The position numbers were made by a program, and so were the translations under genes. Shown here one piece after another: positions 20,555 through 43,112 of a DNA stretch of 64,000 nucleotides (the first letter of the stretch is position 1; each line of letters starts with the position of its first letter). Below the pieces are notes generated by a model, which made no database searches, was not told the origin of the DNA, and saw only the letters and a program-made list of their open reading frames with translations. The DNA comes from Candidatus Latescibacterota bacterium (GTDB taxonomy: Bacteria; Latescibacterota; UBA2968), in the NCBI GenBank assembly GCA_965205975.1, contig OZ242195.1, positions 3,296,001 through 3,360,000 on the forward strand, written 5' to 3'.

Positions 20555-20672
<118 letters not shown>

Positions 20673-20740
20673 AAAATTTAATCGAATATGAATTGAGCGC
20701 CAAAACAAAGCACAGAAGCGATCTGCTGAAAAGTGTTAAA

Positions 20741-23771
<3,031 letters not shown>

Positions 23772-23899
23772 AAAACAGGTTTTCAGCAGATCACTACTGT
23801 GCTCTGCAAAGAATCCATACTTCAGTTTGGCAAATTGTGTATACCCAATTCATATTCAATTGTCAAAGAGCAGTTGCAAATTCTGTTAAAATACAACTT

Positions 23900-23975
23900 T
23901 GGTGGAGATAACCGGGATCGAACCGGTGACCTCCGGCTTGCAAAGCCAGCGCTCTCCCATCTGAGCTATATCCCC
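23900..23975 (-). tRNA. tRNA-Ala(UGC)
   Basis: GGGGATATAGCTCAG...TTGCAA...GGTTCGATCC...CCACCA. Confidence 0.97.
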
Positions 23976-23990
23976 AAATATTTTGTAGTT

Positions 23991-24067
23991 TGGTGGGCCT
24001 AAGTGGAGTTGAACCACTGACCTCGCGCTTATCAGGCGCGCGCTCTAACCAACTGAGCTATAGGCCC
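23991..24067 (-). tRNA. tRNA-Ile(GAU)
   Basis: GGGCCTATAGCTCAG...CTGATAA...GGTTCAACTCC...CCCACCA. Confidence 0.97.
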
Positions 24068-24185
24068 GCCTTAAAAAGCCGGGAAAAATCCCGGCCTTTC
24101 AAAAACCAAATAACGTGCACATGCCAAACCTGGTATTGACCTTAGGAGTAGATGTAAGCGCCTGTGGCCTTACATCGCGTCTCCC

Positions 24186-25735
<1,550 letters not shown>

Positions 25736-27880: not shown

Positions 27881-27954
27881 GCGGCAGTAGCTCAATTGGA
27901 CAGAGCATCTGGCTTCGGACCAGAGGGTTGGGGGTTCGAGTCCTCTCTGCCGCA
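27881..27954 (+). tRNA. tRNA-Arg(UCG), CCA not encoded
   Basis: Acceptor GCGGCAG/CTGCCGC, anticodon arm TCTGG-CTTCGGA-CCAGA, GTTCGAG T-loop. Confidence 0.93.
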
Positions 27955-27962
27955 CTTTATTT

Positions 27963-27998
27963 TTCAGGCACTTAAAAATTAAGTGCCTGAATTTTTTT
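27963..27998 (+). terminator. Intrinsic terminator after tRNA-Arg
   Basis: TTCAGGCACTT-loop-AAGTGCCTGAA followed by T run. Confidence 0.75.
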
Positions 27999-28015
27999 CA
28001 TTTTTTATCATGTCA

Positions 28016-30760
28016 ATGAGCGATACAATCACCATCAGAGGTGCGCGTCAGCACAACCTCAAAAATATCGATCTGGATATTCCGCGCAACTGCCTCGTCG
28101 TCATCACCGGACCATCGGGGTCGGGAAAATCGTCGCTGGCCTTCGATACGGTCTATGCCGAAGGGCAACGCCGTTATGTGGAATCGCTATCCGCTTATGC
28201 GCGGCAATTTCTCGATCTCATGGACAAACCCGACGCCGACAGCATAGAAGGTCTCTCACCTGCTGTGGCAATCCAACAACGCGGCATCCCCCGCACACCG
28301 CGATCAACAGTGGGCACCATAACCGAAGTCTATGACTACTTGCGTCTCTTATTCGCCAGAATAGGCACGCCGCATTGTCCGATATGCAGCCAGACCATTG
28401 TGCGCCAGAGCGTCGCGCAAATTGTCGATCGCGTACTCGCACTGCCCGAAGGACAACGCCTCCAGATACTCGCGCCCTTGATCCGAAATGCCAAAGGCAC
28501 CCACCTGAGTACTTTCAACCAGTTGCGCAAGGAAGGCTATCTCAGGGTGCGCGTTGATGGCGAAGTTGCGTCACTGGATAGCGATATCGTTCTCGATAAA
28601 AAAATAGCGCACAATATCGAAGCCGTCATCGACCGCCTCGTTGTGCGCACGAACATGGCCGCACGCCTCGCGGACTCACTCGAAACAGCCCTCGACCTTG
28701 CCAACGGCACAGCCACACTCGACATCATTGACGATGAGGAATGGACGTTTTCCACGCGCTTTGCCTGCACAGAAGGCCACTTTGAAATCGAAGAAATAGA
28801 ACCGCGTCTCTTTACCTTCAACAGCCCGCACGGCGCTTGCCCCACTTGCAGCGGTACGGGTACAGTTTTTGAAGTCGATCCCGATCTCGTCGTACCCGAT
28901 CCTTCAAAATCCATCCTCGAAGGCGCGATTGCCCCCTGGGGTATCCCCAAGGGCAAACGCCAGGTAGAACAACTTCAACGCCTATCGCGCAACCTATCAT
29001 TCGATCCCTCAACACCCTTTTCCAAACTTTCCAAAACCGTTCAAAGAACAATCCTCAGAGAAAAAGCTGGCGTTATACCCGATCTCCAGCACCAATACAA
29101 AGAAGCTACCTCCGATGAAGCACGGGAAAAAATCGAACGTTTTATGCGCGGGCAAACCTGCCCCACCTGCCAGGGCACGTGCTTGCGCCCAGAAGCTCTC
29201 GCCGTCACAATTTCCAATTCTACAATTGCCGACATTGCCAGCATGCCCATTGCAAAAATCGGGCAATTCTTCCAAACTCTGGACCTCAAAAACAACGCAG
29301 CCGAGATCGCCGCCCCCCTCATACGCGAAATTGAAAACCGCCTTGCATTTCTCGTCGATGTCGGCGTGGGGTATCTCGCGCTCAATCGCAGAGCCGCAAC
29401 GCTTTCAGGTGGTGAATTTCAGCGCATTCGCCTCGCCACACAAATCGGAACCCGCCTCGTCGGTGTTCTCTACGTACTCGACGAACCCAGTATAGGCTTG
29501 CACCCCCGCGACAATCGCAAACTCATCGACACCTTCTGCAACCTGCGCGATTTGGGCAACTCGGTCATCGTGGTCGAACACGACCGCGAAGCCATGCAAA
29601 TGGCCGATCATCTCATCGACCTGGGGCCAGGCGCGGGCGAACAAGGCGGCAAAATTATCTCACAGGGACCGCCAGAAACCGTGATCGCCGACGAAAATTC
29701 TCTCACTGGCAATTATCTCTCCGGTCGAAAAACCATTCCTCTCCCCCCCGACATTCGCCAACCTCGTGGGCATCTCTCAATCAGGGGCGCCAACGGACAC
29801 AACTTGCAAAACATCGATATCGATATTCCACTGGGGGTCTTTGTATGCGTCACCGGCGTATCCGGCTCGGGCAAAAGCTCGCTCATCAATCACACCCTGT
29901 ATCCCGCGCTCGCCCGGCAACTCCATCGCGCCAGCACAGAACCCTTATCCCACACATCTATCGAAGGCGTTGAACAAATCGACAAAGTCATTCGCATAGA
30001 CCAATCCCCAATCGGGCGCACCCCGCGATCAAATGCCGCCACATACACGGGCCTCTTCACAGCAATACGCGAACTCTATGCCCAACTGCCCGAATCCCGA
30101 GTGCGCGGTTACGGTGCCGGGCGCTTCAGCTTCAACATCAAAGGCGGGCGCTGCGAAGCCTGCCAGGGCGATGGCCTGCGCCGTATCGAAATGCACTTCC
30201 TGCCCGATGTTTTCGTCACCTGCGACGTATGCGGTGGCAGTCGATACAACAGAGAAACCCTTGAGATCCGATACAAAGGCACTTCAATTGCCGACGTCTT
30301 AAACCTCACAGTAAATCGTGCCCGAACCTTCTTCCGCAACATCCCAGCCGCACAGCGACAACTCAAATCACTCGCCGACGTGGGCCTGGGTTATCTCCGC
30401 CTCGGTCAACCGGCCACATCCCTCTCTAGCGGCGAGGCACAGCGCGTCAAACTCGCAACCGAACTGGCGCGAACCGCCACGGGCAAAACGCTTTACCTCC
30501 TTGACGAACCCACCACGGGATTGCACTTTGACGACATCCGCGTCCTCATCGAAGTACTCGACCGCCTCGTTGACCGCGGCAACACCATCCTCATCATAGA
30601 ACACAACCTCGACATCGTCAAACGCGCAGACTGGGTCATCGACCTCGGACCCGACGCAGGTGAAGACGGCGGACACATCGTCGCAACCGGTACGCCAGAA
30701 ACCATCGCCCAAAATCCATCTTCTCACACGGGCTGTTTCCTCAAAGAGTATCGCGGATGA
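28016..30760 (+). CDS. uvrA: Excinuclease ABC subunit A
   Basis: GARQHNLKN, two Walker A ([18 protein letters not shown]), LSGGE signature, Zn fingers; start 28010 or 28016. Confidence 0.97.
30720..30747 (+). repeat. uvrA 3'-end sequence, copy 1 (repeated at 34830-34857)
   Basis: CTTCTCACACGGGCTGTTTCCTCAAAGA vs CTTCTCACACGGGATGTTTCCTCAAAGA, 27/28 identical. Confidence 0.9.
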
Positions 30761-30802
30761 CGCGGATTAACGGATGACACGGATTAAAAAGTCGTTGAAA
30801 AT

Positions 30803-30841
30803 AAAAAGTGCCCCGACAAATATCACCGGGGCGTTTTTTAA
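30803..30841. terminator. uvrA terminator hairpin (related copies at about 32110-32148 and 34878-34914)
   Basis: AAAAGTGCCCCGACAAATATCACCGGGGCGTTTTTT. Confidence 0.7.
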
Positions 30842-30966
30842 TATTTCCCATTCTGTACACAATCGTTCAGACACTCCGAATTGTGGATATCAAAGCGAAT
30901 CAAAAAAAGATATTCAATGGCGCGTTCCCTGTTCCTTTACTCTAATGCCCATTGTCAAAATGTCGC

Positions 30967-31374
30967 TTATTTGTGATCGTCTATTCCACTCCCATTTTTC
31001 TCTTTTAGTGCCGCACGGATGACCGCCAGGTCAATATTCGGATATTTCTCTTGAATTGTCGCAAATACTTCCTGGTGTCCCTCTTGCCGACCTTCTTCGT
31101 AGCGTTTTCTGCGATATTTTTCAATTGGAACAAGCATGAGATTCCTGCCCTCCATTAAAAAAAATGTTAAGGTGATTGCCGAAAGACCTATTGGGCCAAT
31201 AATTTTTATGGAATCAAAGATCGCCTCATTGGTGAAACCATCTTGCATAATATGACAAAGGGCAAACCACAACCCAACAGCAAAGAATGCCAAAGAGAGG
31301 CCTACAAAGAACAATCTTTCCCTATCCCCAACACTCCAAATGGATACTCTTTCGCCGTCTGTTTTTCCTACCAT
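30967..31374 (-). CDS. Hypothetical two-TM membrane protein with charged C-tail
   Basis: Two hydrophobic helices then KRYEEGRQEG segment. Confidence 0.6.
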   Translation of the reverse strand: MVGKTDGERVSIWSVGDRERLFFVGLSLAFFAVGLWFALCHIMQDGFTNEAIFDSIKIIGPIGLSAITLTFFLMEGRNLMLVPIEKYRRKRYEEGRQEGHQEVFATIQEKYPNIDLAVIRAALKEKNGSGIDDHK

Positions 31375-31431
31375 AATCCAATCCAGTGAAGCCGTGCCCT
31401 ATGCACTGTAAAGTGTCAGACACTATTTGAG

Positions 31432-31692
31432 TCATGGGAAAAAAACGCGATAGAGCGCACACGCCGCAATAACCGCCGCAATCGTTGTTGCCCAACGCCA
31501 GCGGTTGACCTCACCGATTTTGCTATCCACTGCGTCAAAACGCGAGAGCAAAAACTTGTTGTCTTCGCGCAGGCCGTTGATTGCCTGAACCAGCATCATT
31601 TGAGCGTCCTCAAAGCGTTTGCTGAACTGGTCAAATTGCCCCTCTTGTTTGGCTTGCTTTTGGGCAATACCTTCAATGGTTTCAGTAGCCAT
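31432..31692 (-). CDS. Hypothetical coiled-coil protein with C-terminal TM anchor
   Basis: ATG 31692 behind AAGGG; heptad-like N-terminus, WATTIAAVIAACAL tail. Confidence 0.6.
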   Translation of the reverse strand: MATETIEGIAQKQAKQEGQFDQFSKRFEDAQMMLVQAINGLREDNKFLLSRFDAVDSKIGEVNRWRWATTIAAVIAACALYRVFFP

Positions 31693-31906
31693 GTGCAATC
31701 CCTTTTCTGCCAGTGATCCGAACATATCCAAATCTATTTGATTTCACACGTCGCGTCAAGTCTCCGATGATCCACGGATGAGATCCATGAGACCCTTCCT
31801 GATTTGGAACACACGCAACTGTCAGAATCCAAAGCAAATATCATGCCAATGTCACAGCATCGCGCGACAAATTGTATGGACAGCACTCAAATACCCGTAT
31901 TATGTC

Positions 31907-32018
31907 CTTGTTCACAACCTGAATTTAAATCCGCAGATGGCCGCAGATGGGCACAGATGAAAGGCGAAAGGGTACATTTTGAGCTATTAATGCGTGGTCA
32001 TGTGAAAGATATGTACCG
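31907..32018 (+). repeat. About 115-120-bp dispersed element, copy 1 (inverted copy at 43113-43234)
   Basis: ACAACCTGAATTT-ATCCGCAGATG repeats-AAAGGCGAAAGGGTACATTTTGA...ATGTGAAAGATATGTACCG shared by both copies. Confidence 0.85.
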
Positions 32019-32259
32019 CTTGCCCATTTGTATGTTTCAAACATAGAGTATTCTCAGGAATGCCTCAAGAGCTTATGACCTTGAATTTGACACGTTTCAA
32101 GCCAAAAGAGAAAAGTGCCTCGACAAACATCGTCGAGGCACTTCTTTGACGTGGTATGTCAGCTACAGAGAACAAAAATCCATTCTTGCACGGTGGATCA
32201 TGTATGTCCTTCTACTCAAAATTTAGCTCGAGTTCCCTTCAGATAATCAGGGTTGAAGA

Positions 32260-32538
32260 TCAAGCAAAAGTCTGCCAAAGTGTTTCTGTATCTCGTTCTT
32301 TGAGCAATTGATTCTCTTGTAGGAGTACGCGGACTTGCTCGTCCTTTTTCACGAGACGCGAGGACAGATCAGTGACCATCTGTCTCCCAATCTCGGTGCG
32401 TGCCTTAAAGTCCGCACGCTCACGCCGGAATTGTTCCTGTTCTCTTTTTCGCTTTTGGAACTGATCAACGCCCCACACTACGGAACCGATAACGATTCCG
32501 CCGAGCGCAACTACACCAGCAACCTGATAGTAATTCAT
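32260..32538 (-). CDS. Hypothetical single-TM coiled-coil protein
   Basis: AAGGA RBS; N-terminal TM followed by charged helix. Confidence 0.7.
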   Translation of the reverse strand: MNYYQVAGVVALGGIVIGSVVWGVDQFQKRKREQEQFRRERADFKARTEIGRQMVTDLSSRLVKKDEQVRVLLQENQLLKERDTETLWQTFA

Positions 32539-32553
32539 ATTTTTTCCTTTCGA

Positions 32554-34047
32554 TTACGATCTGATAACACTTAAGGATGGCCCGGCAGTTTGAGACATCA
32601 CTTGCTCAAAGAGCGCGTCGGTCTCATCGCATGCGCGAACCACTGATTCGTATTCGTGTTCTATTTCATCCCAGATCATGTGCAGACGTGATACTTCCTG
32701 CAGATCCTCCTCGATAGCGATCTCCAGCTTTCTGTCAGCTTCCCGTACCCGAGCGATGCCCCACCGACCACCTATCTGAGCCCCGACTAGAATCGGGACA
32801 CCAGCGATTCCAAGGGGCGCAAGAACCAATGGCAACACATCAAGAGCAGACTTGACAGCGCTGCCAGCCACCGCATTCGCAACAGAAATGTCCCCTTGGC
32901 GTGCGGATCTGATCTCTGAAAACAGATCGGTCCCCACAGCTATGAAACAGAACCCAGCGGCAACTCCATTCTGCGCCACCGCCTTCGCCGCCTCAGGCGT
33001 CATTCCAAGCGATGACGCAGCGTGAAAGATACCAGCGTCCGCTATTGCACCTCCAGCACCGAAAAGTGCTCCTTTACCTGCAGCCTTACCTACTTCGGCG
33101 ACATCGATATCGCCGCCAGAGGCTGCCTGAACAATTAGGGATAGAATCGCTGCAGTTGCCGCCGCAAAAGCAGCACCTCCAGCCACTCGAGTTGCTACAT
33201 TGCGCGATTGGTAAGCCATCGCGATATCATCCCGCAATTGTTGAAGCTGCCGACGAGCAACCGGGTCGAGTCCATCATCTGCGTACCTACTAATATTCTC
33301 GACGAGTTGCTCCGCCTGTGCGTCCAAATCCTTGATACCGCGTAACTGGACTTTCGCCTCCTGTAGCCGACGAGCCTCGCGAGCAGTAAAGCCGTCTGGT
33401 GCTACTCGTGGTGTACCGTCAGGATTGACGAAACGGGAATCGACATATCCGACTTGTCCGTATCCGGGCGATTCAGCCATCCGCACCAACTCACGAGAAA
33501 CATATCGACTCGATCCCGTTTTAACCTGACCGTTTAGCTTAGTTATCAACATTCCGTCTTTAGTGCGAAACTGGAATACCAGATCCTTTCGGCTCGTGTG
33601 ATCCGGCGAAAGCCGAATGTCATAGACATTCGTGGCGATTTTATGCGGGGAATTAGTAATACCTGGATCTCGGCCAGCGTGAAGGTCGAGGTAATATTTA
33701 GCAACCACCACTTCCGCCCCTTTGCCCTTTGGATTGGCTCCGGAGACGAGGCTCTCGAGTTCTTTTCCGCTCGTCACCAACCGCTCACACGTTTCTGGCC
33801 GGAGTCCATTTGGAAGTGCAGTACCATCACTTACTGCTCGAGCAGCTTGAGCCGCCTCTCGGGATCCCGCTGCGACCAAGGGCTGGGTCTGACGGACAGC
33901 TTCGGAAAAAACTCGACCTTGATCAATAACACCCGGATCCGTAACTGCACGCGGCGTTATTGTCGGTGCGATCGCGGCATTGGGTGTCACTGCAACAGCG
34001 GAACCGGCTATTGACCGGCCCTTGCCCTTTTTGCGTTTATCTGCCAT
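32554..34047 (-). CDS. Hypothetical protein: putative PD-(D/E)xK-like N-terminal domain plus Gly/Ala-rich membrane hairpins and coiled coil
   Basis: GKGAE...D...GQVKTG motif; hydrophobic glycine-zipper stretches; GGAGG RBS. Confidence 0.65.
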   Translation of the reverse strand: MADKRKKGKGRSIAGSAVAVTPNAAIAPTITPRAVTDPGVIDQGRVFSEAVRQTQPLVAAGSREAAQAARAVSDGTALPNGLRPETCERLVTSGKELESLVSGANPKGKGAEVVVAKYYLDLHAGRDPGITNSPHKIATNVYDIRLSPDHTSRKDLVFQFRTKDGMLITKLNGQVKTGSSRYVSRELVRMAESPGYGQVGYVDSRFVNPDGTPRVAPDGFTAREARRLQEAKVQLRGIKDLDAQAEQLVENISRYADDGLDPVARRQLQQLRDDIAMAYQSRNVATRVAGGAAFAAATAAILSLIVQAASGGDIDVAEVGKAAGKGALFGAGGAIADAGIFHAASSLGMTPEAAKAVAQNGVAAGFCFIAVGTDLFSEIRSARQGDISVANAVAGSAVKSALDVLPLVLAPLGIAGVPILVGAQIGGRWGIARVREADRKLEIAIEEDLQEVSRLHMIWDEIEHEYESVVRACDETDALFEQVMSQTAGPSLSVIRS

Positions 34048-34057
34048 ATAAACCCTC

Positions 34058-34138
34058 CTAAAAAATTAATTCGACTTTTCTATTGCTTCCACTACTCCCA
34101 CCTTTACTACCACCGCGACTAACGTTTGATTTACCTAT
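34058..34138 (-). pseudogene. Degenerate Gly-rich micro-ORF (start mutated to ATA), paralogue of 36636-36737
   Basis: AAAGGAGGT RBS then ATA-GKSNVSRGGSKGGSSG. Confidence 0.55.
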
Positions 34139-34216
34139 TTTCTTACCTCCTTTCTCGTTGGCATCCATCGCCTCAGAGGAATACTACCCAATTGAAACGA
34201 TCATTTTCTCGCATGT

Positions 34217-34459
34217 TCAGTACAGTTCTGTTCTGCGCGTTCGCATAGCATCTGCTTGATCAATCTCTTTTCCCAGTGCCAAGAGATGCGCTGGGCGACC
34301 AAAAGGCTTTAGTGGTCGACGAGGCGAGGCACCGCAATCTAAATTCGGCTTGTTGCGGTTGAGATGCCGAATTTGTCTATGCGCTCTTAGCGCACTGTCT
34401 AATAGGGGTATTTCATCAAGGAAAACAAGGCCAGAGTGGCCATCTTCGGCATCGCTCAT
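34217..34459 (-). pseudogene. Internally deleted copy of the 36789-38543 gene
   Basis: MSDAEDGHSGLVF matches its N-terminus and is fused in frame to RAHRQIRHLNR...AHLLALGKEIDQADAMRTRRTELY, its C-terminus. Confidence 0.85.
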
Positions 34460-34534
34460 ACCGACTCCTCTACTAAGCAAGCCATATCCCTGTAGAACAA
34501 TCAACTCAGGATTTTGAGATCCTGTTTCAAATTG

Positions 34535-34609
34535 CGAACCCGCAGGATTCCCGACAGAAGAAGTGTCGAGACCGGAAGAGATGCAAACTGCATCAAAGCA
34601 CGAGGTTCG
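34535..34609 (-). ncRNA. Putative structured 5'-leader RNA, copy A
   Basis: Three-way junction just after promoter TTGACA(34643)-16-TATTCT; covaries with copy B. Confidence 0.6.
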
Positions 34610-34676
34610 ACCCAAAGAATAGCCAATTTGTCTGGATTGTCAACCCATATTTGGAAAATTCAAAGAATTTTTCAAC

Positions 34677-34710
34677 TGGATTCCCGCTACAAGCCTGCGG
34701 GAATGACGGG
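34677..34710. repeat. dRS3-like palindrome (GGATTCCCGC...GCGGGAATGAC)
   Basis: CTGGATTCCCGCTACAAGCCTGCGGGAATGACGG. Confidence 0.55.
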
Positions 34711-34829
34711 TGAGGAATATGGGAGTGATAAGTCGGGCGTTTGTCTTTCACCCTTCACTCGCATTCCCAACAAAAAACGCCCCAGCGATTGCCGGAATAA
34801 TGATCTCTCCAATTTACAGATCCCGCCAC

Positions 34830-34857
34830 CTTCTCACACGGGATGTTTCCTCAAAGA
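34830..34857 (+). repeat. uvrA 3'-end sequence, copy 2 (junction between the two cassette units)
   Basis: 27/28 identical to 30720-30747 and followed by a related terminator. Confidence 0.9.
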
Positions 34858-34971
34858 AATTGTAACCGCAAAAAAATAAACTGCCCCGACAATATCTGTC
34901 AGAGCAGTTTTTTAATCTTCTGTCATGGTCTATCAGCTATCTAAAATAATAACCCATTCTCGCCCAGCAGA

Positions 34972-36399
34972 TCAGGTACCTCCTTCTCTACACAGATAAT
35001 TTTTTATTATTTCCCGCAAATCAGGAAATTGAAGCAACCCATCACTATCTCGGACTTGCTTTGAACATCGATTTATATCTTCTGCGATCTTTTTTAAACC
35101 TATGATTTCGCGCGCTCCCATCCATCTACTCTGCAAGAGGATGTTATTGTCCTCAATGTCGAATTTATAGCCCCATTTATCGCGTTTCAAGTAAAGTTCT
35201 GTACCTTTGAGTACATTGAGTGGAAAAAGATAGAGTCCTCGCGGACAGGCATCTATAGCCCTTTCATAGCTCGACAGAAAATTGTCTAACGATTGAAATG
35301 GCAATCCAAAAATAAGATGGAGATCAAAGGGGACATTGAATCGATGTAATAGTTCAATCGCCTGATCAATTTTTGGATAATTATTCCCTCAATCTATGGC
35401 TTTAGACTCCTTTTCTTCAAAAGTTTGAACACCAAATTCAAGCCAAACGTCATGATTTCTACAAAATTCCAGGAATTGCTCACCGTCCTTAAGGCAAAGC
35501 AATTCCAATCGGCACTGAAAGTAGAATCTCGCCCGAATTCCTAAAGCCTCTATTTTTTTACAGATTGCTAAATAGTGATCTGCCCGGAGATTGAATATCG
35601 GATCGAGTACGTTAATCTCTTGAACTCCCTTCTCTTTGAAATACTCAAGCTCTTGAAAAAGTCGTCCGTGATTGATTTCTGCTGTCTTATGTCCTGCCAA
35701 ACGAAACTGACAAAACGAACATTGGTATGGACACCGACGCAGAGTCTCCCAACGGACAAATGCTTGGTTTTGTTCAACTGGGAGGATGTGACTCAAGTAG
35801 GGAGACTCTAACTTATCCAAATCAGGGGGAAAGCTGCGGTCACATTCTCCCTTTTTGAGAGTTTCAGGCGTGTAAATCGCATACTTGATTAAAAAGTGGC
35901 GATCTGGTGTCTCACAACGAGATATTGCGTTGATCAATTCCGTGAAAGGCACCTCTCCTTCTCCTTTAACAAAATAATCCACTCCGGGATACTCTTTTGC
36001 CAAGCTGTGATCGCCATAAGTAACTTGTGGACCACCCAAAATAATTATTATCTCTGGGTATTGGACCTTAGCCCAACGAACTACATCTGGAACGTATTTC
36101 TCGTTCCAAATATAACCCCCAAGTGCGAGAAATTTCGGACGGCTCTCCTCAATGAGTTTCAATACATCACGAACTCTAAAGTTGGGAGAATTCAGATTGA
36201 AGTTTTTGAATTCTGATTTTACATCCCCGGTTTGATTTTTCCTGAAATAAGCCTCTATAGAGGCCATAGCAAGCGGTCTTCTCAGATCTTTAGGCCGCGA
36301 CCAATCTAAAGAGATAAACAACAGATCTAACTGGGTTGAGGAATCAACTGAGAATTCGGAGGAATGGGCTTTATCAGCACATTTGTCAGTGATTTGCAT
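34972..36399 (-). pseudogene. B12-binding radical SAM protein interrupted by an in-frame TGA at 35389-35391
   Basis: B12-domain motifs (YIWN, GGPQV, GEGE), CPYQCSFC; frame continues past TGA as GNNY...DLHLIFGLPFQS to 34972. Confidence 0.8.
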
Positions 36400-36462
36400 T
36401 TTGGAACTCCTTTCGCAAATGGCATTAAGGGGACGATGTTTCTATCCCAGTTGTCGTGAAAG

Positions 36463-36530
36463 GATGCATCGGGGCACAATCCCAAAGGGATCAAGAGTGA
36501 GGCTATTGGAGCCTCGAAGTGCGACGCATC
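36463..36530 (-). ncRNA. Putative structured intergenic RNA upstream of the radical SAM gene
   Basis: Outer stem GATGCGTCG/CGATGCATC enclosing hairpins GAGGCT/AGCCTC and GATCCC/GGGATT. Confidence 0.4.
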
Positions 36531-36635
36531 GGGAGGGAATACTTTTGAAGCTATTTATTGGCAGAGGTGTTGACGGGTAAAAGAGATACCGTGGTCAGCA
36601 CCAGCCAATTACTTGCGTTTTGGCGGAGCGTTGGT

Positions 36636-36737
36636 TTAACCGCCGCATGAGGGATTGCCGGTTCTACTGGGCCAGCCAGCACCTTGTCCACGGCTGCTGC
36701 CTTGACCACCACCGCGATTAATTCTTGATTTCGCCAT
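36636..36737 (-). CDS. Gly-rich micro-peptide MAKSRINRGGGQGSSRGQGAGWPSRTGNPSCGG (possibly truncated; read-through adds TNAPPKRK to 36609)
   Basis: Strong RBS AAAGGAGGTGA about 5 nt before ATG; paralogous remnant at 34058-34138. Confidence 0.65.
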   Translation of the reverse strand: MAKSRINRGGGQGSSRGQGAGWPSRTGNPSCGG

Positions 36738-36788
36738 AATATCACCTCCTTTCTCATTGTTATTTATCGCCTCAGAGAGACACTATAA

Positions 36789-38543
36789 CTACCAGTACAA
36801 TTCTGTTCTGCGCGTTCGCATAGCATCTGCTTGATCGATCTCTTTTCCCAGTGCCAAGAGATGTGCCTGGCGAAGCCACCAAAAGGCTTCAAATAGGGGT
36901 CGGCGAGGCGAGGCACCGCGCTCTAAATTTGGTTTTCTGCGGTTGAGATGCCGAATTTGTCTGTGCGCTCTTTTCGCAAATTCGCGGACATTTTTATTGG
37001 GATCGTTTTTAGAGAGCCAGAAAAGCGTTCTGTGTGCTCTTCCTCCGGGATTAACGCGCAATGCCGCCAATGCCCGCACATAACACTGTCGCCATATAGA
37101 CCGAGGTTCTACGAAATCTCCATCTGCATAATCCGATACTTTCTCGCTGCGACTTGTGTCATTTTTTTTTGTTTTCAGCCTTTCAAGACAAAACCTTGCA
37201 AACTCTTCGCGCAACCCCTGCAAGTGCGGGTCTCTATTCAGTTCACTCTGAAGATTCCGAAGATCCATAGAGATTTCAATCCAAGAAGGGATTTTATTAT
37301 ATGGATGAGGCGGAGGCTCTTTATCAGATCCGGACCAGTGGCTAAGATCCGAGGCAACGGCTGGTTCAGTCATCTCCGTGAAAGCCAGTAATAAGGACTT
37401 CAAGCATCGCCACGGAGAGGAAAAAATTAACAACACCTCAAAAGCCATATGATAAAAATCGTAAACGGGCGCACCTGTTGGATCCTTATGTTTAAAGTCT
37501 TCAGGCGTCTCTCGCAGCACTTTCCGCAATATTCCCATGTGTTTGGTAGCACTTGCGACAAGCCGATTTCTCAGTTCATCTGACAGACCAGACTCCAACC
37601 CGCCCATACCCCTACTGTAAATCAATACAGATAACCACCACCAGGCCTTGAGCAAAGATGCGCGTCCTCGACTTAACTCAGGTTCTCTTTCATCCAAAAG
37701 TTCCAGGAATGGGATTAACTCATCTGCAACAATCTGCCATCCGTAACCTGCGTGCTTCAAACGTTCCTTACCCGACGCAAAGCCAATATTCGTAGCATAT
37801 TCAATGGCATGCAGGAGACCAAAAATTTTATCGCCCAAAACATCTTCCGGAAAACTGGAAAACACTTGTAAAACGGTGTCCAATCTGATTATATCGCAAC
37901 GTTCTGCGTTATCCCGGAATCGCCAGATTAACCAAAATTCAATCTGTTCAGGATCACTAAAATCATTATTGGACCATCCTTGTCGCCGAATCGGATTCAA
38001 CAACTCAAAATTGACGACCAGATCTAAAGGCACGCCTTCTGAAAAAAGAAATGGAATCAGGTCAAAGAATAGGAAAGTATGCGCATCCCTAATTTCTATG
38101 AGCTTGTGCCAATCCAAACGTCTTGCACTAAACACCGCCTGCCTTTGAAACTCGTCAACCCACGCGGGAATAACCCAGTCTCTACCTGATTTCACCAGCT
38201 TATCATTGGGCTGAACCACTTCGCTGTAGATAGGCCCAAACCCGAGCAAAAAGCTCAAAAGCAGTGATAGGCGGGTTTGGCGGTCTTTCTCGGTTTGATC
38301 CGGCTCTCCTAACTTGTCCACGACCCCAAGCAGGACACGCTCAAAATAATCCGCAAACTCGCCTTTGAATACAGCGTCACTGCTGCGATCGCCAAAACAG
38401 TCTGGACGTTCAAAAACGCGAATTAGCCATTCCTCGTCATCACGGGAAAAACCAGCGTCCTGAAGGCACTGTTTTACAGGAAATATTTCTGAATCATCTA
38501 AAGGGAAAACAAGGCCAGAAGGGCCATCTTCAGCTACGCTCAT
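36789..38543 (-). CDS. Hypothetical 584-aa all-helical protein with HEAT-like C-terminal segment
   Basis: Long ORF; GAGGAG RBS before ATG 38543; WRQCYVRALAAL...NDPNKNVREFA HEAT-like pair. Confidence 0.75.
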   Translation of the reverse strand: MSVAEDGPSGLVFPLDDSEIFPVKQCLQDAGFSRDDEEWLIRVFERPDCFGDRSSDAVFKGEFADYFERVLLGVVDKLGEPDQTEKDRQTRLSLLLSFLLGFGPIYSEVVQPNDKLVKSGRDWVIPAWVDEFQRQAVFSARRLDWHKLIEIRDAHTFLFFDLIPFLFSEGVPLDLVVNFELLNPIRRQGWSNNDFSDPEQIEFWLIWRFRDNAERCDIIRLDTVLQVFSSFPEDVLGDKIFGLLHAIEYATNIGFASGKERLKHAGYGWQIVADELIPFLELLDEREPELSRGRASLLKAWWWLSVLIYSRGMGGLESGLSDELRNRLVASATKHMGILRKVLRETPEDFKHKDPTGAPVYDFYHMAFEVLLIFSSPWRCLKSLLLAFTEMTEPAVASDLSHWSGSDKEPPPHPYNKIPSWIEISMDLRNLQSELNRDPHLQGLREEFARFCLERLKTKKNDTSRSEKVSDYADGDFVEPRSIWRQCYVRALAALRVNPGGRAHRTLFWLSKNDPNKNVREFAKRAHRQIRHLNRRKPNLERGASPRRPLFEAFWWLRQAHLLALGKEIDQADAMRTRRTELYW

Positions 38544-38619
38544 ACCAACTCCTCTGTTAAGCGTCAAGCCATATCCTTGTGAGCAATCAACTCAGAATTT
38601 TGTAATCCTGTCTAGATTG

Positions 38620-38694
38620 TGAACCCGTAGGATTCCCGACAGAAGAAGTGTCGAGACCGGAAGAGATGCAGATTGCATCAAAGCACGAGGTTCA
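38620..38694 (-). ncRNA. Putative structured 5'-leader RNA, copy B
   Basis: Same fold as copy A, directly after TTGACA(38729)-17-TATTCT. Confidence 0.6.
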
Positions 38695-38760
38695 AAAAAA
38701 AGAATATACAATTTGCTCAGATTTGTCAACGCCAAATTTGAAAAATTCCAATTGCTTCCA

Positions 38761-38795
38761 ACAAAAAACGCCCCAGCGCGTGCCGAGGCGTTTCC
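38761..38795 (-). terminator. Terminator downstream of rfbB (partial copy at 34767-34794)
   Basis: AAACGCCTCGGC-ACGC-GCTGGGGCGTTTTTT on minus strand. Confidence 0.7.
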
Positions 38796-38945
38796 TTCTT
38801 TTATTACCAGATTTTATTCCGTTTCTCATCCGCGTCTATATGACGGGCAGGCACAAGGCACTGCCCCTACATTCATTTCACCCGCATTCTCATCTGCGTC
38901 TATCTGCGTCATCTGCGGATACTTATGGTTTTTCATCCCCACCAC

Positions 38946-39959
38946 CTATTTCCGCTCATCGTATTGCCGCCTGTAATAATCTCGATACCCTGCGCTATCT
39001 CGAATTTTTCGCCACCAATCTTCATTGCCCAAATACCACTCAACCGTCAGGCGCAATGACTCTTCAAAATTGTACTTCGGCTTCCACCCCAGCGCCATAA
39101 TTTTTGATGCATTTAAAGAATACCGCATATCGTGCCCGGGCCGATCAGCCACATGCTGCATTAAATCTTTCGGCTTCTCCAAATACTCCAGAATTTTTTC
39201 CGCAACAGAAAGGCCATCCGCTTCATTCTCACCCCCCACATTATACGCCTCGCCCTGCGCGCCCTTATGCAGCACCAGATCAATCGCCTCGCAGTGATCC
39301 GTCACATAGAGATGATCGCGAATCGCCGTCCCCGCGCCATACACGGGCAATGCAAGATCATCCATCGCATTGGCAATATAAATGGGCACGCGCTTCTCGG
39401 GATATTGAAACCCACCAATATTATTGGATGCACGCGTAATCACCACGGGCAAACCATAAGTAATGGCAAATGCCCGCGCCATCATATCGCCAGACGCTTT
39501 CGCCACCGAGTATGGATTGCGCGGTGCAATTGGTGCATCCTCGGTCCACGGATCTTCGTCCTCGTCCAAAGACCCATACACCTCATCTGTACTCACCTGC
39601 AAAAACCGCTCAACACCGCAATCTCGCGCTGCAGCGAGCAGCGTGTACACACCCAGCGCATTGGACTTCATAAACTCCTCGGCACCCATAATGCTCCGAT
39701 CCACATGGCTCTCAGCAGCAAAATTCACCACCAGATCGACCCGCTGCATCAAATCATTGACCAGCCCAGCATCGCAAATATCCCCCCGCACAAATTCATA
39801 CCGGGAATCGTCCACAACATCCAGCAGATTGTCCAGATTGCCCGCGTACGTCAGCTTGTCCAAATTGATAACGCGATAATCGCGATACGCATCGAGAACA
39901 TATCGCACAAAATGGCTGCCAATAAACCCGGCACCGCCTGTAATGAGCATTGTCTTCAA
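38946..39959 (-). CDS. rfbB: dTDP-glucose 4,6-dehydratase
   Basis: TGGAGFIGS, DKLTYAGN, AAESHVDRSI, STDEVYG, YSVAK, DRPGHD. Confidence 0.94.
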   Translation of the reverse strand: MKTMLITGGAGFIGSHFVRYVLDAYRDYRVINLDKLTYAGNLDNLLDVVDDSRYEFVRGDICDAGLVNDLMQRVDLVVNFAAESHVDRSIMGAEEFMKSNALGVYTLLAAARDCGVERFLQVSTDEVYGSLDEDEDPWTEDAPIAPRNPYSVAKASGDMMARAFAITYGLPVVITRASNNIGGFQYPEKRVPIYIANAMDDLALPVYGAGTAIRDHLYVTDHCEAIDLVLHKGAQGEAYNVGGENEADGLSVAEKILEYLEKPKDLMQHVADRPGHDMRYSLNASKIMALGWKPKYNFEESLRLTVEWYLGNEDWWRKIRDSAGYRDYYRRQYDERK

Positions 39960-40191: not shown

Positions 40192-40416
40192 TCATGAAAG
40201 GTCAAGTTCTCGTCTCACTTCAGCATCTGAGTACACCGCCTCTGTACCTTCTCGGACGCGCTCCAATACTTCTGCGGCAAGATAATAATCCTCCACATCC
40301 TCAAGACCGCGTTTGATAATCTCCCCAAGAAAGAAATCCTTGCTGCGCCCTGTTCGCGCCACGAGGGAATCAATTCGTTTCTCCGCTTCGGGAGCCAGTT
40401 GAATTGTAGCCGCCAT
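40192..40416 (-). CDS. Ribbon-helix-helix (RelB/CopG-like) antitoxin
   Basis: RIDSLVARTGRSKDFF...GLEDVEDYYLA..VLER pattern. Confidence 0.75.
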   Translation of the reverse strand: MAATIQLAPEAEKRIDSLVARTGRSKDFFLGEIIKRGLEDVEDYYLAAEVLERVREGTEAVYSDAEVRRELDLS

Positions 40417-40434
40417 ATTGTCGTCTCCTCTTAT

Positions 40435-43074
40435 CTAAACATTGCCAATTTTTTCTATCAACTGCTGTCGTACATCCTTGCCATCGACGTTCATCTCCGC
40501 GATGATGAACAGCCCTTTGCCATCGCTTTCCTGCTCCCAAAGAGCACCTATGGTTCGCTTATCCGCGGTATCGGACCCCTCGGCAATATGTGCACCCTTG
40601 TACTCGACGACAAAAAGACGGTCATCCTCCAACTGCGCAACAAAGTCCGGATAGAATTTGTCCGTCGGAGTCGGCAGAAAGAACGACTCCGAATGACGCG
40701 CTACGTTGCGAATCCAGTATTTCACTTCTGCCAGACTGTCGATGACCTGAGCACACTGCGTCTCCTCGCCATCTTCAACACCATCAAAAGCGGGAACGCG
40801 ATCCGTACCTAAAAAATGCTTACACGGCTTCCAGCGTCCACGATAGTATCTTTGATCCTGGTACATCCCATCCACAAATGTGAAAGCAGAGTCGAACGAA
40901 ACCGAGACCTTAGACCCAGGCGCAAAAAGACACCGCTGATAAACACTGTTTTGCTCCTGCTGGCGAATGGCATTGATTTTTTTCGCAATTGTGTTGGCAA
41001 GCAGAAATTTACAACGCATCAGTGCGGAGATGGACATGCCGCGTGCCTTGAGCAAATGATTGACCAGTTCGCGTAGCCATTTGAGCAGTTCGCTCTGGTG
41101 AATATCCATCTGTCGCACCTGTCGGTCAAGCCACAGGACAAGTGACTCTGGCGTCCAGCTTTCCGCAGCAATATCCAGAGCCAATTGCTCATCCTCACTG
41201 GCAAACTGATAGGTGACGCGCTTGCCTTCAATATCAATCTCAAAACTGCGTGCTGTCTCGCGGATCGTGAACTCATCTTCGTCCATCTTTGGGGAATAAT
41301 TGAGCAGCGACCAATCGTGGTATTCCATAAAAATGTCCGTATCGGCAAATTCCAGCGTACCCTGGATATCCGACATCAGACGCGGAACCTCGAATTTCTC
41401 CCCTTGTTCAGCAGGCGATATTCTATCCTTGATCTCGTCGTGATATTTCGCAACAGCATCAACAAAATCTTCTCTCTGCGGTTCAGGCAAACTCTCACAA
41501 ATCGCCTTCTCATCGTCTTCACTGATCCAACCTGTAACTGCGATCTCAACCTCTCCTTCAGTTGTTTCGCGCACCAGCAGTCCATCTTGCCCTGCCTCTT
41601 CGAGCCTGGACACGACTTCTGGCGTCGCCGGTGCTCTGTATCTGAACACCAACTCTGTCTCTTGACGCGGACCAAACAAGTCGCCCTGATCTTCGAACGC
41701 ACGTTGAACTGGCTCGATATTGTCGAGGGCCTCATCTTCCTCAAAGCCCATACCCACCAGTTTATCAGTAAGCCCTCGCGCCGCCTCTCCAAAAGACGGT
41801 TCGGACAGAAACGCATACGCTTTGTTGAGATCGGCAACCCCACGCCGTTTGGCATAAGGCATCCGAAGCACGCGACCGAGAAGTTGCTCCACATCTTTTG
41901 CACTTTGAATGCGCGACACAGAGCAAAAAACATAAGCAAATGAACAGTCCCACCCTTCTTTCAGTGCCTCAACCGTGATGATATATTCGATAGGGCAAGC
42001 GCGGTCAAACAGATCAATACCATCGAGTTCGCGTTGGTTCCCAGTGGCAATGGCGATCTTGTCTTCCGGAATCTGTTCCACTTCCATCAGATGATCTTTC
42101 AGTGCTGCAACCGTCACCTCCTGGTTTCGTGGCTGTGCCTGGAACAAGACAATGGGACGGATATAGTCGGCATCGTCGCTCGCAGTCTCTGCAAGAGAAG
42201 CACAAGCGGCAATAGCACCGTTTACAGCATTCTGCCATGTATCGTGCTCGGAAAGCATAATAGGCAACTTGATCATCTCTTCGCGCTTCAATTCCTGCGC
42301 CGTAACGCTGTGCAAAATATTTGACCTGCGCCGTGGCGTAGCCGTGAACTCGACAATCGCGCACGGATTCACCCGCGCCTGCATCTCCCGGGTCAAGCCA
42401 GTAACCGCGTTGTGCGCCTCATCCACAATCATCAGCGGACGGTGGATATGGAGCAAGTTGGCAAAAGAAAATTTGACACCACCTTGTTCCAACTTCTCCA
42501 ACCCAAGAGCAGTGTTCCCAACATTAGAGAAATGCGGCTCCATCTCCTCGTTGTGAGCATAAACCTTCCGCCCCTCAGTACGATTCACCCTCAGCGTTTG
42601 AATCGTACCGACCACAATGCAGCAATGATCGCGAATATCGTGCGGTCGGATATGCGTAAAATCCGCAATATCGAACACCCGCACCCGACCATCAAAAGCA
42701 TCATCCAACACCTGCCGATACGCATGGCGCGTAGTCTTCAATGCCTCAACCGTCTGCTGGCGAATGGTATTCGTCGGCACCAGCCAGAGCACTACGGGAT
42801 AATCCTTCTCAATCCATGCATTGCGAGCAACCGACACGGCATGTGCAGCGAGAATCGTCTTACCCCCACCCGTTGGCAGGCGCAAACAAACATAGGGAAC
42901 ATCAAACAATTCTTTTAACGGCACATAAGCACCAGCATAGCCCCCAAGCCGCATTGCCTGCTCTGGCTCTTGCGTGATTGCCTCGTACGCGTTCTTCGGT
43001 CCCGCCATCCGCGCCTCCTCAAAGAAGCGACGCAGAATAGACAGCGTATCAGTCTGGTATTGTTTTAAGTTCAT
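40435..43074 (-). CDS. res: Type III restriction enzyme Res subunit
   Basis: LPTGGGKT, VDEAH, ALKEGWD, QLLGRVLR, C-terminal YPDF...VVEYKG nuclease motif. Confidence 0.9.
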   Translation of the reverse strand: MNLKQYQTDTLSILRRFFEEARMAGPKNAYEAITQEPEQAMRLGGYAGAYVPLKELFDVPYVCLRLPTGGGKTILAAHAVSVARNAWIEKDYPVVLWLVPTNTIRQQTVEALKTTRHAYRQVLDDAFDGRVRVFDIADFTHIRPHDIRDHCCIVVGTIQTLRVNRTEGRKVYAHNEEMEPHFSNVGNTALGLEKLEQGGVKFSFANLLHIHRPLMIVDEAHNAVTGLTREMQARVNPCAIVEFTATPRRRSNILHSVTAQELKREEMIKLPIMLSEHDTWQNAVNGAIAACASLAETASDDADYIRPIVLFQAQPRNQEVTVAALKDHLMEVEQIPEDKIAIATGNQRELDGIDLFDRACPIEYIITVEALKEGWDCSFAYVFCSVSRIQSAKDVEQLLGRVLRMPYAKRRGVADLNKAYAFLSEPSFGEAARGLTDKLVGMGFEEDEALDNIEPVQRAFEDQGDLFGPRQETELVFRYRAPATPEVVSRLEEAGQDGLLVRETTEGEVEIAVTGWISEDDEKAICESLPEPQREDFVDAVAKYHDEIKDRISPAEQGEKFEVPRLMSDIQGTLEFADTDIFMEYHDWSLLNYSPKMDEDEFTIRETARSFEIDIEGKRVTYQFASEDEQLALDIAAESWTPESLVLWLDRQVRQMDIHQSELLKWLRELVNHLLKARGMSISALMRCKFLLANTIAKKINAIRQQEQNSVYQRCLFAPGSKVSVSFDSAFTFVDGMYQDQRYYRGRWKPCKHFLGTDRVPAFDGVEDGEETQCAQVIDSLAEVKYWIRNVARHSESFFLPTPTDKFYPDFVAQLEDDRLFVVEYKGAHIAEGSDTADKRTIGALWEQESDGKGLFIIAEMNVDGKDVRQQLIEKIGNV

Positions 43075-43112
43075 AACACGGCTACTCGACAATGGTTCGG
43101 ATATTTTTTGAA

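Follow-up and report, generated by a model that had tools for sequence, protein, structure and literature searches.

A conserved helical-protein gene and structured RNA leaders precede exchangeable enzymes in a predicted anti-phage cassette of Latescibacterota and other phyla

Several bacterial immune loci place a regulator ahead of their effectors. In the portions of the literature considered here, BrxR and CapW (WYL), CapK/CapS and RptR head varied immune effectors and are described as DNA-level repressors or kinases thereof (PMC9122601, PMC9122588, PMC12255303, PMC13373217). Control at the level of translation is described for the lactococcal gene AbiD1, in which, according to the sections consulted, a structured translation-initiation region keeps the defence gene low until a protein binds its mRNA (PMC2661086). 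For prokaryotic viperins (pVips), linkage to kinases has been described, with nothing on regulation in the sections consulted (10.1101/2023.09.13.557418), and HicA and RelE adjoin pVips, the regulation of pVip-linked nucleases being given as an open question (PMC10865869). Ophion is, from the part of its report considered, a different radical S-adenosylmethionine enzyme (rSAM) system (10.1101/2025.09.30.679545), and the PDC concept comes from a preprint whose main text, as consulted, does not contain PDC-M51 (10.1101/2024.01.29.577857). Here we describe a locus from a Candidatus Latescibacterota bacterium in which a conserved gene for a helical protein (hereafter the head) and two structured RNAs precede exchangeable enzymes. 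It lies in a 64,000-nucleotide stretch (the window; positions 3,296,001–3,360,000 of contig OZ242195.1, assembly GCA_965205975.1) of a single-contig 5.56-Mb genome (G000), between two genes that we take to be uvrA and rfbB from an earlier note on this DNA and from sequence features. Kinases, HicA and RelE are the only pVip neighbours named in the consulted parts of the two pVip papers, which mention neither this head nor an RNA leader (10.1101/2023.09.13.557418, PMC10865869). The literature searched, which did not extend to Bernheim et al. 2021 or to the supplements of the PDC preprint, contains no description of the head or of either RNA.

The window carries a partly decayed double copy of the cassette, and the head is intact in the copy nearer rfbB (unit 2). 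Coordinates are window positions, and the genes, promoter-like sites, RNA motifs and terminators between 30967 and 39959 are on the minus strand. Unit 2 opens with a sigma-70-type promoter-like site (TTGACA-17-TATTCT, 38701–38729), from which a single transcript would run; the TTGACA promoter-like sites of the two units, at 38729 and 34643, are the top two of 14 such sites found (10.6 expected overall). The promoter is followed by RNA motif A, a three-way-junction leader (38609–38702) with a downstream GGAU able to pair with its AUCC, and by the head gene (36789–38546), which encodes a 585-amino-acid (aa), predicted all-helical protein with a conserved basic C-terminal half and a variable N-terminal half. 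Behind the head come a Gly/Arg-rich micro-open reading frame (micro-ORF) of the WPSxTGxPSG type (36636–36737), RNA motif B, a three-way junction placed before the effector (36454–36533), and an expression platform (36400–36466) with an anti-Shine–Dalgarno (anti-SD) segment directly 3′ of motif B, a spacer hairpin and the Shine–Dalgarno (SD) sequence. The effector is a B12-binding rSAM enzyme (B12-rSAM; 34972–36399), assigned by Pfam and, as PDC-M51A-like, by PADLOC. In the window strain this gene is interrupted by a premature TGA (35389–35391) that is absent in three other sequencing runs, and in the related genome G013, which has the same two units, it is open and encodes 470 aa.

The head belongs to a large family, with 421 close homologs among 8,000 candidates scored and 472 representatives at 50% identity. 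The closest homologs are Candidatus Latescibacterota records, sponge metagenomes are among the partial holders, and head-bearing records also come from the Poribacteria, Acidobacteriota, Myxococcota, Planctomycetota, Verrucomicrobia and Spirochaetia. It has no Pfam, NCBIfam or PADLOC match, and none of 27 family members has a Pfam match over the cut-off, hence no helix-turn-helix (HTH) or WYL domain. Predicted models are confidently all-helical (pLDDT 88 for the whole protein and 95 for the C-domain), with no WYL-type β-barrel. The best match to an ARM/HEAT fold (Z 8.8, r.m.s.d. 4.2, 221 aligned) and the best match of the C-domain (Z 7.8, r.m.s.d. 4.4, 167 aligned) are at the level generic for helical proteins, and the matches therefore establish neither a new fold nor a function. 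An ESM Atlas search returned HEAT rows at 0.90 with low recognition, and a PDB sequence search returned designed helical repeats only. Conservation is about 0.2 in the acidic N-terminal half and climbs to 0.5–0.7 in the basic C-terminal part, where the conserved Arg, Trp and His residues cluster. Duplication and decay of the head are recurrent (L078, L081, L070, L074 and L073), leaving extra copies of motif A before decayed starts and, within this set, one double-length head of 1169 aa.

The enzyme behind the head varies. Taking the first effector to be the first within 3.5 kb, 70 genome loci comprise 26 with a viperin, 25 with a beta-CASP nuclease and 13 with a B12-rSAM (64 of 70), and 41 metagenome and viral loci comprise 17, 6 and 6, respectively, both sets including near-duplicates. 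Six genome loci have none of the three, one owing to a contig end, and seven have two of them; the remaining metagenome and viral loci are too short (five) or different (seven, among them family-2 glycosyltransferases and an additional B12-rSAM). A tree built from 47 sponge-type heads, which leaves out L055 and L069 (no label) and the distant loci, requires 22 changes of the cargo label, against 21.1 with shuffled labels, indicating that the head tracks no single enzyme and that cargo is exchanged constantly. The proposal of the earlier note that a conserved head precedes interchangeable cargo is thus strongly upheld, well beyond the window locus; the cargo is not arbitrary, being mostly viperin, beta-CASP nuclease or B12-rSAM, in most cases accompanied by an RNA motif of its own.

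The commonest cargo is a viperin with a TMPK-like kinase. Both pVips tested score over the NF038283 cut-off, with a PADLOC pVip match, and cassette rSAMs and kinases match PADLOC PDC-M51A/B, with one locus (L089) carrying both genes behind the head. The window's own genome contains no viperin over the NF038283 cut-off, although relatives have one behind the same head, and no kinase lies behind the rSAM in the matching unit of G013 or among the window ORFs. Among 41 related genomes, all five viperins and both PDC-M51A proteins are behind heads, as is a beta-CASP nuclease of about 520 aa in three of these genomes. A paralog of about 850 aa and about 63% identity to this nuclease is found elsewhere in most members of the genus (in G000 at C1:3516941–3519517, L138) and is a possible source of the cargo. 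A family-2 glycosyltransferase occupies the effector slot in L069, L162 and L172, with a histidine-phosphatase-family gene after it in L162, making it a candidate fourth effector. Two spirochaete heads are longer (L104 and L105, 770–790 aa) and lack all three effectors over a range of 6 kb. The cassette can ride on mobile elements, because two IMG/VR contigs carry it, one with a viperin (L141) and one with a B12-rSAM followed by a recombinase-like ORF (L142).

What occupies the short slot that separates the head from the effector is likewise exchangeable. Most sponge-type loci have a Gly/Lys/Arg-rich peptide here, and by pattern the 48 loci divide into WPSxTGxPSG-type (25), ANQLNPN-type (6), SMP-like (2) and unclassified (15) forms; in distant phyla the slot holds DUF4258-like or other small genes. 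Three unrelated motifs (WPSxTGxPSG, NRANQLNPNN and the SMP-like AARIQ) are exchanged within one MAKS...KGK frame in L037, L039, L042, L045, L047, L048, L049 and L063, and L049 has two of them fused.

Both RNA motifs are three-way junctions with the third helix stacked immediately on the closing stem, and their G-U pairs indicate the coding strand in each case. Motif A occurs in 47 of the 48 sponge-type loci; in two of these its only location is behind the head, ahead of a head start that has decayed. In its alignment, 12 of 21 pairs have double changes, a count that none of 500 shuffles reached, and 94.7% of cells are paired; for motif B, double changes affect 15 of 24 pairs and 89.4% of cells are paired. 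A motif B profile trained on the first 900 nucleotides (nt) behind the head re-found the motif 2.2–2.7 kb away, before second effectors, and six of seven multi-effector loci have it there. Among the 41 related genomes, motif B is present in exactly the ten that have the head. G000 contains two copies of motif A and one of motif B, all in this locus; this confinement led us to reject a genome-wide regulon. Rfam gave no match to either motif in the window or in four related loci. Farther afield, the motif A model has one weak match among 22 distant genome loci and none in distant metagenome loci. Of 39 non-redundant distant loci, 22 match a descriptor of the motif B junction in the 100 nt that follow the head (9.1 for shuffles; 8 of 39 for a coding control).

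The anti-SD consists of the last bases of the motif B closing stem and the next nine. It pairs with the SD of its own effector at −7.4 kcal/mol, compared with −6.4 ± 0.24 kcal/mol for shuffled partners (n = 46; one leader without a start was dropped), and for 27 of the 46 it is among the best 10% of the 12-mers in the leader. In the motif A leaders a GGAU located 6–62 nt downstream can pair with the junction AUCC (n = 53), and L069 shows a compensatory change, in a test that is lenient because the element was picked by motif. General sequestration of the SD was rejected as an explanation, overall pairing being no higher than in control genes. The sequencing runs listed as carrying the locus include no RNA dataset.

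On balance, we consider it probable from these sequence patterns that the locus is an anti-phage cassette in which swappable enzymes are held under translational RNA switches that the head acts on. The case for this is indirect: random pairing of the head with three unrelated folds is better explained by control of expression than by protein contact, every effector comes with an RNA of its own, and the head is basic where it is conserved. The regulatory role of the head, also suggested in the earlier note, is one that we infer. Effector translation would be off by default, held by the anti-SD; the basic C-terminal half of the head would bind the junctions, tightening the closing stem and freeing the ribosome site, and sensing of a phage signal would fall to the variable N-terminal half. 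The head would switch the junctions before each effector and before its own gene, with activation and repression both compatible, and the enzymes would be made only upon infection. Synthesis of chain-terminating 3′-deoxy-3′,4′-didehydro (ddh) nucleotides by pVips is established. Viperins of the cassette would supply ddh-nucleotides, a B12-rSAM with a TMPK-like kinase would yield another modified nucleotide, and the beta-CASP nuclease would cut RNA or DNA. More tentatively, the cassette may define a new class of immune control, in which a helical sensor and paired three-way-junction RNA switches turn on exchangeable antiviral enzymes.

Several observations weigh against these proposals. The covariation shuffles ignore relatedness. 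Motif B is detected at E < 0.001 in 42 of the 48 sponge-type loci, and thus not in all, and its co-occurrence with the head is favoured by the building of both RNA models from head-adjacent sequences. The covariance models of motifs A and B do not cross-match in either direction, so that a shared binding site is argued from topology alone. Pairing of the SD across the whole leader does not exceed that in 200 control genes (median 0.56 versus 0.55, p 0.33). The beta-CASP cargo need not be defensive, because it is a shortened relative of the gene of about 850 aa; PDC-M51 is itself a predicted system; and numerous viperins elsewhere among bacteria function in the absence of this head.

The retention of motif A before dead heads (unit 1 of the window, G013, L078 and L081) would suit an arrangement in which the RNA switches are opened directly by a phage protein or stress signal while the head acts separately, for example by sensing or fighting phage in parallel. 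The anti-SD layout requires no head, and AbiD1 offers a precedent for a phage-opened switch in the portions of that work consulted (PMC2661086). The identical distribution of motif B and the head over the related genomes, together with the autoregulation-like position of motif A before the head gene itself, makes this explanation unlikely. Somewhat less probable again is that the head acts by protein contact, as an antitoxin, scaffold or sensor that holds the effector or micro-peptide and lets it go on infection. ARM/HEAT solenoids, which the head fold loosely resembles at a generic level, bind basic peptides, and a Gly/Lys/Arg-rich peptide does follow the head in most sponge-type loci; but close heads precede three unrelated folds without phylogenetic clustering, and the peptide slot contains any of three unrelated motifs, none of them, or in distant phyla a DUF4258 or other small gene.

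A three-way junction with an anti-SD is also riboswitch-like, and near-invariant Asp, Glu, His and Arg residues in the head could belong to a new-fold enzyme that makes or removes a small-molecule ligand, such as a nucleotide signal or cofactor. We regard this as improbable, given that RNA conservation lies mostly in the stems, with pyrimidine-rich linkers and no purine-rich pocket, and that fold searches with the head matched no enzyme fold. Least plausible among the functional alternatives is a non-defence biosynthetic unit, either a B12-rSAM modifying the Gly-rich peptide or a nucleoside-antibiotic cluster. The window peptide and B12-rSAM do resemble the pair of a ribosomally synthesized and post-translationally modified peptide (RiPP) pathway, and glycosyltransferases and kinases are among the cargo. 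Set against this, the same peptide type precedes viperins and nucleases as well, RiPP-maturase models score far under their cut-off, and the slot showed neither a transport gene nor a protease gene.

The tandem itself could be suspected of being an assembly chimera of two strains, as its junction (34767–34857) unites pieces of both anchors. There is practically no chance of this: a single Logan contig spans 34556–36830 both in what is probably the source sample, at depth 257, and in another sample from that study, at depth 17, read depth is flat at about 250–260 across both units, and G013 has the same tandem. The tandem reported in the earlier note is therefore real, and its details at the junction were accurate. 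Half of the rfbB terminator (a 21-bp copy, 34767–34787 = 38758–38778, which is exact) and rfbB-side sequence are joined to a copy of the uvrA 3′ end (34830–34857, 27 of 28 positions matching). Sequence resembling that next to the rfbB stop of other alleles (ending CCGCCACCT) passes into the uvrA end (CCATCT then TCTCACAC) at a microhomology, CCA(C/T)CT, of 5/6 bp. The G013 junction is shorter and joined through GCCCC. The tandem is likely to be a by-product, a second uvrA–rfbB allele added by recombination at microhomology; this allele would have come through a homologous crossover combined with an illegitimate one, or via a circle, without an integrase, and the older head would then have decayed, with its promoter and motif A kept.

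The two units are less alike than had been proposed. Pairwise alignment gives two shared blocks only (34420–34664/38504–38751, 85%; 34088–34394/36687–36978, 76%), and not a repeat of the whole interval. Unit 1 has the promoter-like site and motif A (34524–34643; motif A score 92 bits), but its head gene is an 80-codon relic (34217–34459) with an internal deletion of about 1.5 kb, identical in G013, around which promoter, leader, and first and last codons are kept. Each unit has its micro-ORF as a frame, intact in neither: the relic Gly-rich frame of unit 1 (34058–34138) has the start codon ATA, as in G013, and that of unit 2 is shortened by a premature stop in this strain. Motif B is missing from unit 1.

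Behind this dead head, the cargo of unit 1 is an outsider. It comprises a 92-aa ORF with a hydrophobic N terminus (32260–32538), without a Pfam match over the cut-off, and a 497-aa nuclease-like protein (32554–34047) with conserved E112, D143, D155 and Q174-x-K176 and a Gly/Ala-rich hydrophobic C-terminal half. The latter represents a separate wide family of 140 homologs in which the E/D/D/QxK set is conserved (alignment of 26) and has no Pfam, PADLOC or NCBIfam match over the cut-off; we take its N-terminal half to be PD-(D/E)xK-like from these motifs. Its gene is behind a head in one of the 70 genome loci, and the unit-1 cargo is also present headless in G001.

Terminator-like hairpins divide the interval, and the three called related in the earlier note indeed are. 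They comprise a bidirectional hairpin 3′ of uvrA (30804–30839) and the terminators closing unit 1 (32111–32146) and unit 2 (34877–34912), with fold z-scores of −3.8 to −6.2 and, for the latter two, 78% and 64% identity to the first; a relative of the unit-1 terminator ends the G010 cassette at a different site. The rfbB terminator-like hairpin lies at 38758–38800. The module at 30850–32100, in which two small hypothetical ORFs of 135 and 99 aa (30967–31731) have weak paralogs elsewhere in the genome, is bounded by a terminator as noted earlier; it is a passenger and not a further part of the cassette, as neither RNA motif was found in it and it is headless in G002, G005 and G014.

The 3′ part of uvrA (27983–30760, plus strand) is matched in 25 of 25 genomes, and rfbB (38946–39959) has orthologs in all 15 genus relatives. 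The gap between them is variable: in these 15 relatives it contains no gene (6), the small-ORF module only (3), a fucosidase (1), a broken, headless 497-aa gene (1) or a head cassette (3), and in the last the cassette adjoins uvrA with rfbB located elsewhere. Further relatives have the head cassette at other genomic sites, so that uvrA–rfbB, proposed earlier as the hotspot, is a variable gap and one among several cassette sites. Dispersed intergenic repeats with many genome copies, in the window at 31800–32030 and 38807–38942, are often at the edges of inserted modules and may promote exchanges. An rRNA operon (16S, two tRNAs, 23S and 5S; 20555–25735, minus strand) lies about 2 kb from uvrA, which is directly preceded by a tRNA (27881–27954). 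Beyond rfbB, at 40192–43092, a 74-aa ORF and an 885-aa ResIII helicase form a type III restriction-like locus, placing defence genes on that side of the variable site as well.

The head family and both RNAs are new to the libraries searched, and the cassette, with one protein family and two short RNAs, provides a concrete candidate for what induces prokaryotic viperins and the genes next to them. If the proposed mechanism is correct, the head would be an inducer dedicated to prokaryotic viperins and would parallel, in bacteria, the inducible expression of viperin; the B12-rSAM and kinase pair, which may make an undescribed modified nucleotide, would be marked as producing a new antiviral nucleotide analogue. 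As viperin, B12-rSAM, beta-CASP nuclease and family-2 glycosyltransferase are interchangeable in the slot, each is a candidate antiviral enzyme, and the slot behind the head can be used as a discovery probe.

Comparison with described systems finds partial likenesses. The cassette shares the viperin and TMPK-like kinase with pVip systems, although the window itself has no viperin. Its rSAM is a PDC-M51A (E 6.9e-66), but no kinase lies next to it in the window, and the PDC-M51 model set includes neither the head nor the RNAs. Like integron arrays and defence hotspots, it combines a fixed promoter and a fixed gap in the chromosome with cargo that varies; it differs in usually having one to three effectors and several insertion sites. 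Judged by the familiar features of attC, no repeated attC-like site is present between the cargo genes, and no integrase was seen, in an analysis that did not search for the integrase family genome-wide. Unlike in a RiPP cluster, the peptide is not tied to a dedicated maturase. With BrxR, CapW, CapK/CapS and RptR, so far as the portions of those reports considered here describe them, it has in common one conserved gene upstream of varied immune effectors; it differs from them in having structured RNAs before the effectors, and from the HTH or WYL regulators BrxR, CapW and CapH in that its head is predicted to be all-helical and has no Pfam match. Like AbiD1 it has a structured leader, here with an anti-SD layout, which would keep a defence gene low until a protein binds. 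In the consulted account of AbiD1 a phage protein serves as activator of a single effector, whereas in the cassette the RNAs are accompanied by a host gene and the effector can be exchanged. By analogy, then, the cassette resembles a regulator-headed defence operon or an AbiD1-type switch, and it falls outside the WYL/HTH regulators and known RNA families.

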